IMG/VR virus record: IMGVR_UViG_2548876947_000005
DNA length: 5,037 nucleotides
Direction: 5' to 3' (one strand)
DNA from: a virus
Taxonomy: Duplodnaviria > Heunggongvirae > Uroviricota > Caudoviricetes
Positions 1-5,037 of this stretch are shown here, piece after piece. Within the stretch, counting starts at the first letter, position 1, and each line of letters starts with the position of its first letter. A model generated the notes under the pieces. That model had not been told where the DNA came from, made no database searches, and was given only the letters and a program-made list of their open reading frames with translations. The position numbers and the translations under genes are program-made.

Positions 1-56
1 GAAAACCGATACTGGAAAAACTCTAAAGCGGTGGCCAGTTTTTGTTGACCACTACA
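1..56 (+). mobile_element. Partial IS3-family insertion sequence (IS911-like), right-end terminal inverted repeat; body of the element lies left of the window
   Basis: Minus-strand reading of 21-56 is TGTAGTGGTCAACAAAAACTGGCCACCGCTTTAGAG. It shares TGTAGTGG, an 11-nt gap and TGGCCACC with the plus-strand sequence at 4982-5017 (24/36 identical by hand alignment). 5'-TG terminus is typical of IS3 family. Similarity to the IS911 right IR is from memory, not a search. Confidence 0.5.
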
Positions 57-96
57 AATCGTGGTGATTGGTCGCTGATGCAGAATGTTTTATGTG

Positions 97-117
97 AAAC
101 CGCCTCCGGGCGGTTTT
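97..117 (+). terminator. Intrinsic (rho-independent) terminator hairpin, possibly bidirectional
   Basis: AAACCGCC (97-104) / tccg loop / GGCGGTTT (109-116): GC-rich stem followed by TTTTG on the plus strand and preceded by an A-tract. Sits 19 nt after an in-frame TGA (76-78) of a plus-strand reading frame entering from the IS junction. Confidence 0.5.
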
Positions 118-976
118 GTCGCTCATGGAACATAAACAATCACGTCAGTGGCCGCTTTTTTTGAGCGGGTCCTTTCCGGTGATCCGGAGCGTTACGGGGC
201 GGAAGGCGCGCAGTTTTTCTCTATTTATGGAAATTTTCCGGTTTAAGGCGTTTCCGTTCTTCTTCGCCGTAACTTTATGTTTTTATTTAAAACACCACCT
301 GAAAAGAAAGGAAATGGAAAGCATTATTTGGGACTGAAAATGGCATGATCGTTTCCTTTCTCCTGAACTTGGGTTACTGAACACTTACTCTACTGTAGGA
401 ACTCGAAATGCAGAGCTATAAGGTAATGATGACGATTAAACTGAGAGGTTCGATTAGAAAAGTATCTGAATACTAGTAAATTTCGCGAGCTGACATTCTG
501 TATTTTTCATAGGAAACAGAATATTGGAAAAGATGCGCTTGTGCTCTCTACTGAGGGTCGGGAAATTCGTATTTGTGCCAGTTATTGTGGAAAGTAAAAG
601 CTCTGGTCTGCTGCAAATGATTTGCGTTGCTGTGTCTATCTGAATGTCAGGAGCGCGTATAGCGTCCAGTAATATGATGTTTGTAGTAGGGGCTTCTGTG
701 ACGATAGGCTACGTTGCTCAAATGCTATCCCCACAATCTTGTGGGTAGCCGAGTAAGCAAGATACTGATAACAAGGCATTCTATGCATTTGGTGGTGTAA
801 CGAATACAACCGGCCAAGGGGATCTTGTTCTGCTGGCTTATGGTCAACGCCGAATCGGTGGTACTATCATTTCTGCGAGCATCTACCTTGAAGATAACAC
901 GTAAAAATGTTCGACGAAGCGCTAGCCAAGGAAAAATAATGGAAATGAGTAATATCGGGAGCTAAACTTGGTTGGT

Positions 977-1017
977 AATACAAGTTGCAGGTGTGTATTT
1001 ACATAGCAACTTGTATT
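977..1017. repeat. Perfect 12-bp inverted repeat with 17-nt spacer (RNA hairpin or palindromic protein-binding site)
   Basis: AATACAAGTTGC (977-988) and GCAACTTGTATT (1006-1017) are exact reverse complements; spacer AGGTGTGTATTTACATA. Lies 54 nt beyond the stop of the minus-strand 253-aa gene. No U-tract follows on the minus strand; only a weak T-rich tail on the plus strand. Confidence 0.6.
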
Positions 1018-1070
1018 TCACTAACGGATGTTTGACCGAAATTTAATCAGTTGAGGTTAAAAATTAGGTA

Positions 1071-1832
1071 TTATTTGTTTGACAAGTTTTGCCATGTTTG
1101 AATGAGGAAAACTGACATGCTTCCTGCAAGATTAACAGCTAAAAGAGCATGTCGATCAGCAGGTTTTATTGGTTTTTTCCCTATGCCATGAGCATCGCCA
1201 TATTTATTACGTAAATTGCCAAGGCCATTTACCACAGATGAGCAACCTTTAAGTATCTGCTTAAAAATCTGTTCTCCGTGCTGATCTGGAGCCAAATTAA
1301 GTGCTTTGGATGTTAGTTTATAAAGTTCACTCATGTCTAGATTTCTATCATAAGTAATACTTAAATCATCAAGAATGTGTTTACAAACCGTCTCAAGCAA
1401 TGTTCTAGATGCTGTAATAGCCCCTTCAGGATCGTTGTTTCTTCTGTCTAGAGCTTTTGCCCAAGCTTCATTCACGCCACACTCATCATAGCTTCTTAAT
1501 CCGTCAGTTATGTGAACATCCGAAGGCGTAGCATGATTCTCTTCGAAATAATCGAATAACGGTGTGAATTCAGTTGAGATGAAGTACTCGCGCTCTTTAT
1601 ATGTTGGGAACTTCTGCTGTATGAATCCCCAAAATTTTTTTAGGCTTCTGTTTTCTCTTACGAATGCAGGAAGCAACAGTTTTAATACAGAGTTTTGTAT
1701 AAAGTACGATCTAAGAGAAATATAATTTTCACTATTATCTCGAGGTCCTCCTCGAGCAACCTTAATTAATAAGTTCTCTAAATGTCTAGCTCGTTCCTGA
1801 TCCGACGAAAACTCATTGAGAAAATTATCCAT
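1071..1832 (-). CDS. HEPN-type Abi_C / AbiJ-like abortive-infection family protein, 253 aa (candidate RNase toxin or defence effector)
   Basis: Long minus-strand ORF with ATG at 1832-1830 and SD AAGGGG 7 nt upstream (plus coords 1840-1845), TAA stop at 1073-1071. C-terminal region has a helical HEPN-like layout with R-x6-H motif RNKYGDAHG (residues ~208-216, plus coords 1188-1211), consistent with the Rx4-6H HEPN signature and with the Abi_C family as I recall it. Strongly AT-rich, unlike the adjacent phage genes. Family assignment is by recall, not HMM. Confidence 0.6.
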   Translation of the reverse strand: MDNFLNEFSSDQERARHLENLLIKVARGGPRDNSENYISLRSYFIQNSVLKLLLPAFVRENRSLKKFWGFIQQKFPTYKEREYFISTEFTPLFDYFEENHATPSDVHITDGLRSYDECGVNEAWAKALDRRNNDPEGAITASRTLLETVCKHILDDLSITYDRNLDMSELYKLTSKALNLAPDQHGEQIFKQILKGCSSVVNGLGNLRNKYGDAHGIGKKPIKPADRHALLAVNLAGSMSVFLIQTWQNLSNK

Positions 1833-1876
1833 TTTAGGACCCCTTACACTTTTTCTATGGACTATACCAGTGATAG

Positions 1877-2062
1877 CTACCGCTTGCCTCCAGCATCTCT
1901 GACCCCGTAAGCATGGCCTTGATCGTAAGGTTTTGAACCCGTTTCAAGTACAATTCTTGGAGCTTTTGGGGGTAAAACATTGCCCTGAACCGAACGAAAG
2001 CCATCTCGATATCCTTGCTCAAATTCTTCTCTACGGGTTTGAACATCAACTGAATTAGTCAT
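1877..2062 (-). CDS. Small hypothetical protein, 61 aa, Gly/Arg/Asp-rich; likely first gene of a two-gene operon with the HEPN-like gene
   Basis: ATG at 2062-2060 with canonical SD AAGGAG (plus coords 2069-2074) and 6-nt spacer; TAG stop at 1879-1877, 44 nt before the next start. By hand count about 17 of 61 third codon positions are G/C while overall GC is near 47%, a coding-like bias in this frame. No recognisable family. Confidence 0.4.
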   Translation of the reverse strand: MTNSVDVQTRREEFEQGYRDGFRSVQGNVLPPKAPRIVLETGSKPYDQGHAYGVRDAGGKR

Positions 2063-2134
2063 TAATAACTCCTTACATATCCTGTGTATTGCATGATGTA
2101 TTGCAACGGTTCGTTTTGGAAGTAATTCTGAAGC

Positions 2135-2143
2135 ATATTATCA
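2135..2143 (-). promoter_or_regulatory. Candidate extended -10 promoter element (TGaTAATAT on minus strand) for the two-gene cassette
   Basis: Minus-strand sequence TGATAATAT about 70 nt upstream of the 61-aa ORF start. No good -35 (AGGATG at 17-nt spacing). Weak, sequence-only call. Confidence 0.2.
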
Positions 2144-2183
2144 CTAAAAATCATTCACATCCTTTCATATTTGACTCATGTAA

Positions 2184-2972
2184 CCCAAGCATGAGGTGAA
2201 TCCGCAGATGACTCTGCGTCGCCTGCCGGATGAAGATCCACAGAATCTGGCGGACCCGGCTTACCGCCGCCGTCGCATCATCCTGCAGAACATGCGAGAC
2301 GAAGAGCTGGCCATTGCTCAGGTCGAAGAGATGCAGGCCGTTTCTGCCGTGCTCAGGGGCAAATACACCATGACCGGTGAAGCCTTCGATCCGGTTGAGG
2401 TGGATATGGGCCGCAGTGCGGCGAACAACATCACACAGTCCGGCGGCACGGAGTGGAGCAAGCGTGACAAGTCCACGTATGACCCGACCGACGATATTGA
2501 AGCCTACGCGCTGAATGCCAGCGGTGTGGTGAATATCATCGTGTTTGATCCGAAAGGCTGGGCGCTGTTCCGTTCCTTCAAAGCTGTCAGGGAGAAGCTG
2601 GATACCCGTCGCGGCTCTAATTCCGAGCTGGAGACAGCGGTAAAAGACCTGGGTAAAGCGGTGTCCTATAAGGGGATGTATGGCGATGTGGCCATCGTCG
2701 TGTATTCCGGACAGTACGTGGAAAACGGCGTCAAAAAGAACTTCCTGCCGGACAACACGATGGTACTGGGGAACACTCAGGCACGCGGTCTGCGCACCTA
2801 TGGCTGCATTCAGGATGCGGACGCACAGCGCGAAGGCATTAACGCCTCTGCCCGCTACCCGAAAAACTGGGTGACCACCGGCGATCCGGCGCGTGAGTTC
2901 ACCATGATTCAGTCAGCACCGCTGATGCTGCTGGCTGACCCTGATGAGTTCGTGTCCGTACAACTGGCGTAA
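2184..2972 (+). pseudogene. E: Lambda-like major capsid protein E, 5'-truncated (C-terminal ~262 codons only)
   Basis: Translation PKHEVNPQMTLRRLPDEDPQNLADPAYRRRR...DPDEFVSVQLA matches the C-terminal two-thirds of phage lambda gpE nearly residue for residue. The frame opens right after an in-frame TAA at 2181-2183. The ~80 N-terminal codons are absent and no SD precedes GTG 2196 or ATG 2208. TAA stop at 2970-2972. Confidence 0.85.
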
Positions 2973-3013
2973 TCATGGCCCTTCGGGGCCATTGTTTCTC
3001 TGTGGAGGAGTCC

Positions 3014-3412
3014 ATGACGAAAGATGAACTGATTGCCCGTCTCCGCTCCCTGGGTGAACAACTGAACCGTGATGTCAGCCTGACGGGGACGAAAGAAGAA
3101 CTGGCGCTCCGTGTGGCAGAGCTGGAAGAGGAGCTTGATGACACGGATGACGCTGCGGGTCAGGATACCCCTCCCGGCCCGGAAAATGTGCTGACCGGGC
3201 ATGAAAATGAGGTGGTATCAGCGCAGCCGGACACCGTGATTCAGGATACGGCTGAACTGGCCACGGTCGTGGCACTGGTGACGCTGCATACTGATGCACT
3301 TCACGCCACGCGGGATGAACCTGTGGCATTTGTGCTGCCGGGAACGGCATTTCGTGTCTCTGCCGGTGTGGCAGCCGAAATGACAGAACGTGGCCTGGCC
3401 AGAATGCAATAA
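3014..3412 (+). CDS. FI: Lambda-like DNA-packaging / head assembly protein FI (132 aa)
   Basis: ATG at 3014 preceded by SD GGAGGAG (3004-3010). Translation MTKDELIARLRSLGEQLNRDVSLTGTKEELALRVAEL...ERGLARMQ is near-identical to lambda gpFI as recalled. The six-frame ORF 2975-3412 is the same frame extended upstream. Confidence 0.9.
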   Translation: MTKDELIARLRSLGEQLNRDVSLTGTKEELALRVAELEEELDDTDDAAGQDTPPGPENVLTGHENEVVSAQPDTVIQDTAELATVVALVTLHTDALHATRDEPVAFVLPGTAFRVSAGVAAEMTERGLARMQ

Positions 3413-3423
3413 CGGGAGGCGCT

Positions 3424-3777
3424 GTGGCTGATTTCGATAACCTGTTCGATGCTGCCATTGCCCGCGCCGATGAAACGATACGCGGGTACATGGGAACGTC
3501 AGCCACCATGACATCCGGTGAGCAGTCCGGCGCAGTAATACGTGGTGTTTTTGATGACCCTGAAAATATCAGCTATGCCGGACAGGGCGTACGTGTTGAA
3601 GGCTCCTGCCCGTCCCTGTTTGTCCGGACTGATGATGTGCGGCAGCTGCGGCGCGGCGACACGCTGACCATCGGTGAGGAAAACTTCTGGATAGACCGGA
3701 TTTCACCGGATGATGGCGGAAGCTGTCATCTCTGGCTTGGGCGTGGCGTGCCGCCTGCCGTTAACCGTCGTCGCTGA
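3424..3777 (+). CDS. FII: Lambda-like head completion / head-tail joining protein FII (117 aa)
   Basis: GTG start at 3424 with SD GGGAGG (3414-3419). Translation MADFDNLFDAAIARADETIRGYMGTSAT...GVPPAVNRRR matches lambda gpFII. Confidence 0.9.
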   Translation: MADFDNLFDAAIARADETIRGYMGTSATMTSGEQSGAVIRGVFDDPENISYAGQGVRVEGSCPSLFVRTDDVRQLRRGDTLTIGEENFWIDRISPDDGGSCHLWLGRGVPPAVNRRR

Positions 3778-3788
3778 AAGGAGGAGGT

Positions 3789-4322
3789 ATGGCCATAAAA
3801 GGTCTTGAGCAGGCCGTTGAAAACCTCAGCCGTATCAGCAAAACGGCAGTGCCCGGTGCCTCCGCAATGGCCATTAACCGCGTGGCCACAACGGCAATGA
3901 ATCAGTCGGCGTCACAGGTTGCCCGTGAGACAAAGGTGCGGCGAAAACTGGTAAAGGAAAGGGCCAGACTGAAAAAGGCCACGGTCAAAAATCCGCACGT
4001 AAAAATCATTGTTAACCGCGGTGATTTACCTGTCATCAAACTGGGGATACGGATCACCGGAAGTCGTCCCAACAGTACGCTACGGGCCGGTCAGCATCGT
4101 TATCAGCGGGCATTTATCCAGCGATTAAAAAATGGTCGCTGGCATGTCATGCAGCGTGTGGCCGGGAAAAACCGTTACCCCATTGATGTGGTGAAAATCC
4201 CGATGGCGGTGCCGCTGACCACGGCGTTTAAACAGAATATTGAACAGATACGGCGTGAACGTTTGCCGAAAGAACTGGAATACGCCCTGAAACAACAACT
4301 GAGGATTGCGATAAAGCGATGA
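3789..4322 (+). CDS. Z: Lambda-like tail completion protein Z (177 aa)
   Basis: ATG at 3789 with SD AAAGGAGGAGG immediately upstream. N- and C-terminal regions (MAIKGLEQAVENLSRISKTAVPG..., ...GRWHVMQRVAGKNRYPIDVVKIPMAVPLTTAFKQNIE...) match lambda gpZ; the central part looks divergent from my recollection of lambda. Confidence 0.85.
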   Translation: MAIKGLEQAVENLSRISKTAVPGASAMAINRVATTAMNQSASQVARETKVRRKLVKERARLKKATVKNPHVKIIVNRGDLPVIKLGIRITGSRPNSTLRAGQHRYQRAFIQRLKNGRWHVMQRVAGKNRYPIDVVKIPMAVPLTTAFKQNIEQIRRERLPKELEYALKQQLRIAIKR

Positions 4323-4714
4323 AACATACTGAACTCCGTGCAGCCGTACTGGATGCACTGGAGAAGCATGACACCGGGGCGACGCTTTTTGATGGTCGCC
4401 CCGCTGTTTTTGATGAGGCGGATTTTCCGGCAGTTGCCGTTTATCTCACCGGCGCTGAATACACGGGCGAAGAGCTGGACAGCGATACCTGGCAGGCGGA
4501 GCTGCATATTGAAGTTTTCCTGCCTGCTCAGGTGCCGGATTCAGAGCTGGATTCGTGGATGGAGTCCCGGATTTATCCGGTGATGAGCGATGTCCCGGCA
4601 CTGTCAGATTTGATCACCAGTATGGTGGCCAGTGGCTATGACTACCGGCGCGACGATGATGCGGGCCTGTGGAGTTCAGCCGATCTGACTTATGTCATTA
4701 CCTATGAAATGTGA
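4319..4714 (+). CDS. U: Lambda-like tail tube terminator protein U (131 aa)
   Basis: ATG at 4319 overlaps the Z stop (ATGA, translational coupling). Translation [54 protein letters not shown]...LTYVITYEM matches lambda gpU. Confidence 0.9.
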
Positions 4715-4721
4715 GGACGAT

Positions 4722-4997
4722 ATGCCTGTACCAAATCCAGTAATGCCGGTGAAAGGGGCCGGGACCACCCTGTGGGTTTATAAGGGGAACGGTGACCCTT
4801 ATGCGAACCCGCTTTCAGACGTTGACTGGTCGCGTCTGGCTAAAGTTAAAGACCTGACGCCCGGCGAACTGAGCGCTGAGTCCTATGACGACAGCTATCT
4901 CGATGATGAAGATGCGGACTGGACTGCGACCGGGCAGGGGCAGAAATCTGCCGGAGATACCAGCTTCACGCTGGCGTGGATTGTAGTGGCACAGTAA
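4722..4997 (+). pseudogene. V: Lambda-like major tail protein V, 3'-truncated by IS insertion (N-terminal ~86 codons plus 5 junction-derived codons)
   Basis: ATG at 4722 with SD GAGGA (4713-4717). Translation [50 protein letters not shown]...DTSFTLAW matches the N-terminus of lambda gpV (about 246 aa in lambda). Similarity stops at ~4981, where the IS-like repeat begins; the frame then reads IVVAQ and stops at TAA 4995-4997. Confidence 0.8.
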
Positions 4998-5037
4998 GTT
5001 TGGCCACCTGATTAAAGGTGATATTCTCACCTCAACA
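4982..5037 (+). mobile_element. Partial IS3-family insertion sequence (IS911-like), left-end terminal inverted repeat; element continues beyond the window end
   Basis: Plus strand from 4982 reads TGTAGTGGCACAGTAAGTTTGGCCACCTGATTAAAGGTGATATTCTCACC..., sharing TGTAGTGG-N11-TGGCCACC with the inverted sequence at 21-56. Begins with 5'-TG. Starts exactly where homology to lambda V ends. Confidence 0.5.

Follow-up and report, generated by a model that had tools for sequence, protein, structure and literature searches.

The window, which is the whole 5,037-nt stretch of DNA analysed, was interpreted with high confidence as part of a decaying nested mobile-element locus lying between two unrelated insertion sequence (IS) insertions. 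By homology, positions 57-2191 were identified as the right-hand part of a satellite of a published type, namely a helper-embedded PICI that has integrated into lambda-like capsid gene E, and positions 2192-4981 as the helper prophage segment 'E-FI-FII-Z-U-V'. A first-pass annotation had read the same DNA as a composite-transposon-like unit bracketed by two copies of one IS. Sequence comparison instead assigns the window ends to two different IS3-family elements that were inserted separately. The features are listed below.

1-56 (plus strand): terminal 56 bp of an IS3-family element of IS911 type, with its right inverted repeat (IRR) at 21-56 and the element end at 56
57-59: AAT, right copy of the 3-bp target-site duplication from the IS911 insertion (comparison of L014 with L001)
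57-164 (plus): 3' terminus of tail assembly gene I (lambda-type, captured), followed by I-J-spacer-like sequence (satellite late zone)
166-362 (plus): satellite cos region (aligned locally with phage lambda J02459, right end joined to left end)
317-2140: satellite cargo slot of variable content, located between cos and attR (homology breaks relative to sister elements)
1071-1832 (minus): 253-aa abortive-infection protein, Abi_C / AbiJ-like, HEPN-type (Pfam, PADLOC, RefSeq)
1877-2062 (minus): 61-aa ORF, same strand as the Abi gene and upstream of it, without a family match
2182-2191 (plus): satellite attR identity block inside capsid gene E (AACCCAAGCA; attL is AGCCGAAGCA)
2192-2972 (plus): helper major capsid gene E, 3' part (Pfam Phage_cap_E, profile 94-328 of 329)
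3014-3412 (plus): helper gene FI (Pfam Packaging_FI; RefSeq annotation in L001)
3424-3777 (plus): helper gene FII-like, head-tail joining (Pfam Phage_attach; RefSeq annotation in L001)
3789-4322 (plus): helper gene Z (Pfam Minor_tail_Z; RefSeq annotation in L001)
4319-4714 (plus): helper gene U (Pfam Phage_tail_U; RefSeq annotation in L001)
4722-4981 (plus): tail tube gene V, 5' 86 codons plus two bases (Pfam Phage_TTP_12, profile 1-69 of 135)
4982-5037 (plus): first 56 bp of a different IS3-family element, here ISX (full length 1258 bp), with its left inverted repeat (IRL) beginning at 4982

The motif TGTAGTGG-N11-TGGCCACC has two exact matches in the window, at 30-56 on the minus strand and at 4982-5008 on the plus strand, and was absent from 200 of 200 dinucleotide-preserving shuffles (chance expectation 0). 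The matching imperfect inverted repeats noted earlier at both window edges are therefore real, and their assignment to the IS3 family also held, the stubs being identical to the ends of full IS3-family elements. A complete 1249-bp IS911-type element in L002 (10927-12175, reverse strand) ends with the 56 bp of window 1-56 without mismatch, and so does the full copy in L032. Window 4982-5037 is identical to the start of a complete 1258-bp element in L001 (10927-12184; stub at 10927-10982). Relative to the genes of these full copies, the left stub comes after orfB, which makes it an IRR, and the right stub precedes orfA, which makes it an IRL. Both elements thus read left to right, which agrees with the earlier assignment of the left end as a right IR, of the right end as a left IR and of the two ISs to direct orientation.

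The full copy of the left element, which lies outside the window, encodes a 100-aa OrfA and a DDE (rve) OrfB and has an A6G frameshift site. Its orfA and orfB are in the 0 and -1 frames, RefSeq applies the label 'programmed frameshift', and rve Pfam matches were obtained. As in the IS3 family, its 36-bp IRs are imperfect (IRL and IRR 24/36 identical), begin with 5'-TG and contain the conserved IS911 blocks. The full copy of ISX encodes a 103-aa OrfA and has an A6G site at 333, TG...CA IRs and rve domains; it is labelled 'IS3 family transposase, programmed frameshift' in RefSeq and only 'IS3 family transposase', with no finer name, in plasmid annotations. Full annotation of both ISs (orfA/orfB with -1 frameshift, both IRs), as the first-pass annotation had advised, was thus achieved through relatives' copies and returned complete features for two different elements.

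IS911 belongs to the IS3 group of the IS3 family and transposes by copy-out-paste-in via a circle intermediate. The left element shares with it the A6G site, the DDE OrfB, a 3-bp duplication and the IRR, the reverse complement of window 21-56 agreeing with the published 36-bp IS911 IRR (TGAAGTGGTCAACAAAAACTGGCCACCGAGTTAGAG; PMC2909936) at 33/36 positions; it is unlike IS911 in its tips, both of which are TGTAGTGG rather than TGAAGTGG. The E. coli K-12 IS911A relic shares 89.5% identity with the left element and 65.7% with ISX. Because of its approximately 10% divergence from this relic, the left element may have a different ISfinder name. ISX is a more distant relative of IS911 with a common IR architecture.

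Full copies of the IS911-type element and ISX from related E. coli genomes are 64% identical in DNA, and their proteins are 56% (OrfA) and approximately 50% (OrfB) identical. The description of both ends as IS911-like copies of the IS3 family consequently stands for the left end, while the right end is a distinct element. Like-for-like IRs have two conserved blocks in common and are 30/36 identical; the outer ends of the bracketed segment, IS911 IRL and ISX IRR, agree at just 21/36 positions. The shared end architecture and the same direction of the two ISs reflect family likeness and happenstance. RecA-dependent recombination in E. coli has a minimal efficient processing segment of roughly 23-27 bp. 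The longest exact word common to both elements is 17 nt, which is below this minimum, so the flanking ISs offer no usable substrate for mutual recombination. Homologous recombination between them was rejected for this reason, and with it the suggestion that the segment could be lost by that route.

Target-site duplications were examined at each IS. Contig L014 (AIBF01000032.1) ends in GGTGGTGAAAT followed by TGTAGTGGCACAC, the IS911 IRL, giving GAAAT at the boundary and stopping 56 bp into the IS. The uninterrupted gene I in L001 reads GGTGAAATCGTGG at the insertion point. Read-through proteins from the interrupted gene I (I') into IS911 were predicted for duplications of 2, 3, 4 and 5 bp and then sought in the protein collection. 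The product expected for a 3-bp duplication was present (...DGGEIVVAH, 201 and 214 aa, WP_024235687.1), matching the gene I product predicted beforehand; those for 2-, 4- and 5-bp duplications were absent from the collection. As AAT stands on both sides of IS911, this element was inserted alone. The I'-IS911 junction was found in five contigs (L014 and four more), and the left junction of the window (1-140) in 0 of 5426 complete E. coli genomes. ISX is flanked on the left by GAT and on the right, in relatives, by AAC (lom side) or CAT (integrase side); no GAT duplication was seen at its right flank in the relatives examined. An ISX lacking a matching duplication fits later adjacent deletions or IS-IS recombination and is no argument against IS3-family membership. 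The right flank of ISX in the source strain is probably like that of these relatives.

A composite-transposon-like unit, moving jointly or deleted by IS-IS recombination, is permitted by the geometry, since direct orientation gives outer ends of IRL plus IRR, and the IR likeness described above also speaks for it. It is nevertheless very improbable. The elements differ in overall identity, in longest common run and in their outer ends; IS911 has its own AAT/AAT, and the outer flanks of the putative unit mismatch, AAT on the left standing against the AAC or CAT that follows ISX on its right side in relatives. A 3-4 bp duplication around the whole unit, which had been proposed as a check, is thus not in evidence. 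Independent insertion, named in advance as the finding that would speak against joint mobility, is established for the left IS by its own duplication and is inferred for the right IS from relatives. Segment 57-4981 was never found in another context in the 5426 complete E. coli genomes or the assemblies examined. In the complete genomes, only four places cover at least 80% of the window, all in one satellite/prophage context, the left context being the same in the assemblies examined, and the proposed occurrence of the unit at other loci was accordingly not borne out. Taken over every feature tested, the composite reading is contradicted, in part through relatives. Tn9 is a composite transposon with IS1 direct repeats. 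The window resembles Tn9-type composite transposons in having cargo between two same-direction ISs; it is unlike them in having two different ISs, an own duplication with no common outer one, and no second locus, and it does not qualify as a member.

The bracketing could also be an assembly artefact in which repeat k-mers were placed on the contig with no real IS at one or both ends. Both window stubs and the IS stub of L014 are exactly 56 bp long, as is typical of de Bruijn-graph contig ends, and the window is therefore very likely a complete short-read contig that ends 56 bp into a repeat on each side. Such ends report real junctions in truncated form. The complementary junction and the same habit of stopping at 56 bp probably link the window with assembly GCA_000446665.2. 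The junction of the interrupted gene V (V') with ISX is present in 2 of the 5426 complete E. coli genomes (H1 and H2, both closed long-read genomes), and the complementary partner of the left junction, with its 3-bp duplication, lies on an independent contig and four further contigs. With both junctions independently corroborated, an assembly chimera was rejected, and absence of a real IS at either end is hardly credible. Where a short contig has like IS-family motifs at its two ends, the usual cause is an assembly that halted at repeats and not a transposon.

The DNA between the two separate IS insertions was compared with HE-PICI 11capE (Eco567.11capE, site group E:Phage_cap_E_80), for which a 10-bp identity block in gene E has been published (Tommasini, Mageeney & Williams 2023, PMC10111431). 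The satellite of the window and Eco567.11capE have in common the gene-E 10-bp site, a P4-type integrase, AlpA, primase, SSB, an E-like capsid gene of their own, late genes captured from the helper and a cos resembling that of the helper. The window satellite differs in its AbiJ-like gene between cos and attR, in a K'-I fragment upstream of cos, in an attR block with two mismatches to attL, in a helper that is without V (3' part) through J, and in the IS911 within its late zone. Gene E is split at a short identity block (AGCCGAAGCA / AACCCAAGCA), as in the capE group, and the two mismatches were seen when attL and attR of L013 and L014 were compared with the window. L003-L014 show the four zones of the published PICI layout: one with int and AlpA, one of variable content, one with primase/SSB, and a late one that includes a capsid gene of the satellite itself. 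The IS-free relative VCSW7 contains a complete lambdoid prophage with gene E split by the satellite; in such relatives the satellite has int, AlpA, primase and SSB, E- and D-like genes of its own, cos and the Abi gene. The satellite is of a known, published class.

At the left of the satellite segment, the gene I remnant occupies 57-78 (...IVVIGR*). Window 57-164 is continuous with a Lambda_tail_I gene of 202/215 aa that is present in L001, L002 and L015-L024, and window 56-133 matches I-gene 3' ends in other prophages. The cosN equivalent lies at 197-208 (GGGCGGAAGGCG; lambda GGGCGGCGACCT), and window 165-314 is 87-92% conserved in sister satellites and lambdoid phages. Homology to sister elements ends at about 314-316 and resumes at about 2138-2171. 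Alternative contents of this slot in other genomes are TIR, terS+DUF2971, a restriction endonuclease and HEPN+DUF262. The interval between cos and 'E had also been considered as a random prophage deletion scar; this was rejected in favour of a cargo slot plus attR. An Rfam scan of the window gave no match at E <= 0.1, and predicted promoters and terminators in 1-2300 were no more frequent than in shuffles.

The 253-aa protein matches Pfam Abi_C (E = 1.7e-23, 83 bits, cut-off 24) and, in its C-terminal half only, PADLOC AbiJ (E = 2.4e-22, 78 bits, residues 129-245), and is named 'abortive infection family protein' in RefSeq. It resembles AbiJ / Abi_C (PF14355) in the C-terminal 115 residues and in the Rx4-6H motif, present as RNKYGDAH (R-x6-H). 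It is unlike AbiJ in that its N-terminal half matches no AbiJ N-terminal domain family; for the AbiJ N-terminal DNA-binding domain, no Pfam family was found on residues 1-168 at E <= 0.01. The 61-aa ORF was called beside the Abi gene in nearly every listed locus, with a product length of 63 aa in three of them, and gave no Pfam or PADLOC match; we know of no counterpart of this conserved neighbour. Together with the helper genes, the Abi gene bears out the earlier description of the content as an HEPN-like cassette plus prophage fragment. The ISs had been put forward as a route by which the cassette spreads, and most of its carriers are without either IS. The cassette would instead have spread as satellite cargo, through predicted packaging at cos with the aid of a helper and through exchange of slot contents. 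This predicted satellite transfer with slot exchange, not the ISs, would account for its spread. For annotation, the AbiJ-like cassette is best regarded as cargo of a helper-embedded phage satellite and not as IS-borne, and the slot between cos and attR would be a site at which defence genes are swapped among E. coli strains.

On the helper side, the 5' 91 codons of gene E lie approximately 11 kb away, past the satellite integrase; a 91-aa fragment adjoins the integrase in L013 and L014. Gene V normally has 246 codons and is intact (246 aa) in IS-free relatives. In the window it is cut by ISX, and the frame stops at 4995-4997 within the IS. The truncated V and the deletion of G through J suggest that the resident helper can no longer supply tails. 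Given the loss of helper V (3' part) through J and the IS911 in the late zone, the satellite can probably no longer rely on its own helper for mobilisation. The ISs mark decay, both of the helper prophage with its lost tail genes and of the satellite late zone. Beyond correct annotation the importance is small. The segment documents the common decay of a prophage and is no mobile unit of 4.9 kb.

Carriers are nested: the Abi protein is found in 334 assembly blocks, the V'-ISX junction in approximately 40, nearly all without the left IS, and the I'-IS911 junction in the five contigs. The order of the IS events is probably as follows. The 1258-bp ISX would have inserted into tail-tube gene V, after which the DNA lost to its right would have differed from lineage to lineage. 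A lone IS911-type insertion would have entered the captured gene I of the satellite at a later time and in a small sub-lineage only, duplicating AAT. This insertion was perhaps a local hop from an identical copy approximately 15 kb away in a yegL-like gene.

The bracket may also serve as a substrate for rearrangement through other copies, with the left IS911 and an inverted identical IS911 approximately 15 kb to its right inverting the block and IS-end deletions eroding the locus; the chances of this are judged to be about even. In H1, a second IS911 copy lies in the yegL-like vWA gene 8.8 kb to the right of ISX, with its own GGT/GGT duplication. Direct comparison of H1 with H3 defined H3 as H1 minus exactly 8,799 bp, from the ISX IRL outer tip to the IS911 IRR tip, and the right flank of ISX varies by lineage, being lom in some and the integrase in another. 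Rearrangement of this kind complements the separate insertion of the two ISs and is no true alternative to it. The inverted IS911 copy was seen in the relative H1, and the junctions of the window and L014 represent the uninverted state. For strain 2015C-4136CT1, the lom-side flank of ISX was not among the best 12 records listed.

It is unlikely, though less so than the composite or artefact readings, that the two different IS3-family elements are functionally coupled through their similar ends. Strain 2015C-4136CT1 has an 8,799-bp IS911 end-mediated deletion whose limit is exactly at the ISX IRL outer tip. IS911 reportedly undergoes targeted insertion next to IR-like sequences (Rousseau et al. 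2008, cited in PMC2909936). A deletion stopping at the ISX IRL tip is what would be expected if such targeting also acts on a heterologous IS. Recognition of the IRs of both elements by one transposase may be compatible with their 30/36 identity, and if it occurs and reaches cleavage, a hybrid of IS911 IRL and ISX IRR could occasionally move the 4.9-kb block.

Two different IS3-family elements that inserted independently into a decaying satellite-in-prophage locus are, with high confidence, the best explanation of the window. The first-pass annotation had proposed that two IS911-like copies bracket a composite-transposon-like 4.9-kb unit. The IS family, the identity of the ends and the orientation were upheld; the ideas of two copies of one element, of joint mobility and of loss by recombination were contradicted.

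The end motif reported at both window edges, TGTAGTGG-N11-TGGCCACC, was recovered exactly twice (30-56, minus strand; 4982-5008, plus strand) and in none of 200 dinucleotide-preserving shuffles. The whole window was compared by megablast with 5426 complete E. coli genomes, which returned three near-identical relatives: RM14723 (H1) and Z1323HEC0355 (H2), both matching 56-5037, and 2015C-4136CT1 (H3), matching 56-4989. Full-length IS copies for comparison were taken from H1 and H3, and the window stubs were assigned as follows.

IS stubs of the window
1-56, left stub: last 56 bp of a 1249-bp element in H3 (locus L002, 10927-12175, reverse strand), downstream of orfB
4982-5037, right stub: first 56 bp of a 1258-bp IS3-family element in H1 (locus L001, 10927-12184)

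In the H1 copy, the window-matching start lies upstream of orfA, and the transposase is annotated in RefSeq with a programmed frameshift. From the stub positions relative to orfA and orfB, the left stub can be assigned as an IRR and the right one as an IRL, with both elements running left to right, so the full copies bear out the proposed IS3-family ends and direct orientation. The left IRR matched the published 36-bp IS911 IRR at 33/36 positions (PMC2909936). No name for the right element was present in the annotations, and it is hence provisionally labelled ISX.

Comparison of the left IS911-type element with ISX
Full elements: global DNA identity 64%; longest exact word in common 17 nt, in the frameshift region
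OrfA: 56% identity
OrfB: about 50% identity
K-12 IS911A relic: 89.5% to the left element, 65.7% to ISX
Like ends: IRL vs IRL 30/36; IRR vs IRR 30/36
Would-be outer ends (IS911 IRL vs ISX IRR): 21/36

The DNA, OrfA and OrfB identities contradict two copies of one IS. A 17-nt identical run is too short for RecA-dependent recombination to be efficient in E. coli, and recombination between the left IS and ISX is therefore not a realistic way of losing the segment.

The junction of IS911 with position 57 was absent from all of the complete E. coli genomes searched. H1-H3 are uninterrupted at this site and read ...GGTGGTGAAATCGTGG..., where a lambda-type tail assembly gene I has its 3' end. Interrupted-gene products were predicted for IS911 insertion with a 2-, 3-, 4- or 5-bp duplication and looked up by exact match. 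The 3-bp (AAT) prediction was the sole one found, as WP_024235687.1 (201-aa and 214-aa versions, ending ...DGGEIVVAH); the 2-, 4- and 5-bp predictions had no exact match. The contig carrying this protein (AIBF01000032.1 of assembly GCA_000446665.2, L014) ends ...GGTGGTGAAAT/TGTAGTGGCACACTGAATTTGGCCACC..., which is the IS911 IRL, and the left junction of the window reads ...CCACTACA/AATCGTGG (strokes mark the junctions). Together, these give I'-AAT-[IS911 ->]-AAT-'I, a simple insertion of a single IS. Pieced together from a complementary contig and relatives, and not read from one molecule, the flanks indicate that the left IS911 inserted alone. All three IS stubs (window 1-56, window 4982-5037 and L014 10629-10684) are exactly 56 bp long. 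Stubs of one such length are characteristic of contig ends in de Bruijn-graph assembly, which makes the window a probable whole contig of a short-read assembly, likely GCA_000446665.2 or a sister one.

ISX lies in tail gene V, and the resulting read-through V' protein (91 aa) was carried by about 40 assembly blocks. At the V'-ISX places shown, the left context was the same in all, and gene I was uninterrupted on every contig reaching that far left. The Abi protein encoded in the window was present in 334 assembly blocks, the I'-IS911 product on 5 contigs only. This nesting of carriers (the Abi satellite, within it the ISX-in-V subset, and within that the IS911-in-I subset) argues for sequential, separate events. 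By these sequence comparisons, ISX appears to be older than the left IS911 and to have a different history.

To the right of ISX, lom was present in H1, H2 and two further loci (L017, L018), with a flank beginning AAC. In a metagenome contig (L015, 11518 onward), a prophage integrase lies directly right of ISX and is followed by chromosomal genes; the flank begins CAT and lom is absent. This contig represents a different deletion variant at the common V'-ISX junction. The left flank of ISX, GAT, was repeated by neither right flank in the relatives, and the differing right flanks indicate later deletions or IS-IS recombination beside ISX. The flanks outside the supposed unit were also mismatched (left AAT vs right AAC or CAT, the right flanks being read in relatives). 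Joint mobility of the 4.9-kb unit is contradicted by these unlike outer flanks, by the AAT duplication belonging to IS911 itself and by the nested carriers.

VCSW7 (L013), an IS-free relative, contains a lambdoid prophage that is complete from cI, nin, Q, lysis, Nu1, A, W, B, C and D on to Z, U, V, G, T, H, M, L, K, I, J, lom and the tail fibre genes. An 11-kb element interrupts its major capsid gene E, with 91 codons preceding the break.

Contents of the VCSW7 element
P4-type integrase and AlpA
variable gene, Icd-like, DUF4222
D5_N primase and SSB
own E-like capsid gene and D-like decoration gene
AlpA-like HTH gene
cos site, 61-aa ORF and Abi gene, then the remainder of E

The junctions of this element have a 10-bp block in common (AGCCGAAGCA), attL and attR being identical there. 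In the window lineage, attR (window 2182-2191) reads AACCCAAGCA and attL (L014, ~1338-1347) reads AGCCGAAGCA, with 2 positions differing; this mismatch might impair excision. Judged on sequence, the element corresponds to the published helper-embedded PICI '11capE', or E:Phage_cap_E_80 type, which is characterized by a 10-bp identity block in gene E, its own capsid gene, a cos in common with the helper and a 'late zone' capturing helper late genes (Tommasini, Mageeney & Williams 2023, PMC10111431). Window 166-362 aligned with phage lambda across its joined ends; at 197-208, the cosN equivalent reads GGGCGGAAGGCG vs GGGCGGCGACCT in lambda, the flanking cos sequence being otherwise closely lambda-like. 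Window 165-2191 (compare L013 20436-32682) is the right end of a capE-type helper-embedded PICI, and 2192-4981 holds the helper genes 'E, FI, FII, Z, U and V'. The content first described as a HEPN-like cassette plus a prophage fragment was confirmed, with the cassette placed in the satellite right end.

Window 57-164, with an upstream K' fragment and gene I, was found in the H1-H3/window lineage only. In L001 (5336-6109), a helper tail piece of ~770 bp (K' fragment, complete I and I-J spacer) lies between the AlpA-like gene and cos. By analogy, this piece looks like the product of the late-gene capture described for capE-type satellites (PMC10111431).

Sister elements have window 165-316 and 2138-4981 in common and differ in the genes between, which in four of them (L025, L026, L027, L028) comprise TIR; terS and DUF2971; a restriction endonuclease; and HEPN and DUF262. 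The conserved flanks and differing genes mark window ~317-2140 as the variable defence-cargo slot of the satellite, between cos and attR. The slot gene in the window encodes an Abi_C/AbiJ-like HEPN protein (Pfam E = 1.7e-23), with a PADLOC AbiJ match (E = 2.4e-22) over the C-terminal half only. The Abi cassette probably spreads via the satellite and its cargo slot.

A 61-aa ORF without a family match (1877-2062, minus strand; called as 63 aa in three loci) lies beside the Abi gene in nearly all listed loci and is a possible partner or regulator of it. Between cos and the Abi gene, about 700 bp (363-1070) yielded no convincing ORF, Rfam match or signal excess. Within it, 751-897 shows 75% identity with a pseudogene remnant of L027, a likeness which makes 363-1070 probably relic DNA. 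In gene Z (window 4046-4109), sister-prophage alignments break between 4045 and 4110, and Z is 177 aa in the window vs 192 aa in the sister prophages with the break (L013, L027, L028), pointing to a local replacement or deletion.

H1 carries a second IS911, identical to that of H3 and inverted, which lies within a yegL-like vWA gene, 8.8 kb to the right of ISX, and has a GGT duplication of its own. H3 differs from H1 by the loss of exactly 8,799 bp, between the outer tip of the ISX IRL and the IRR tip of the second IS911 (L001 10927 to L032 4482), and its inverted IS911 (L002 10927-12175) abuts V' at the same nucleotide as ISX in H1. The pattern resembles an adjacent deletion brought about by one end of an IS911. 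Targeted insertion is reported for IS911. An endpoint exactly beside a related IR recalls it, and IR-targeted end attack is, by analogy, a possible cause; a title on IS911 'targeted insertion' is among those cited in PMC2909936. The deletion suggests that the IS911-type element and ISX may interact via their similar ends, the 4.9-kb block still being no transposon. All components of the locus are of known kinds, and the endpoint of the 8,799-bp deletion is its sole mildly unusual point.
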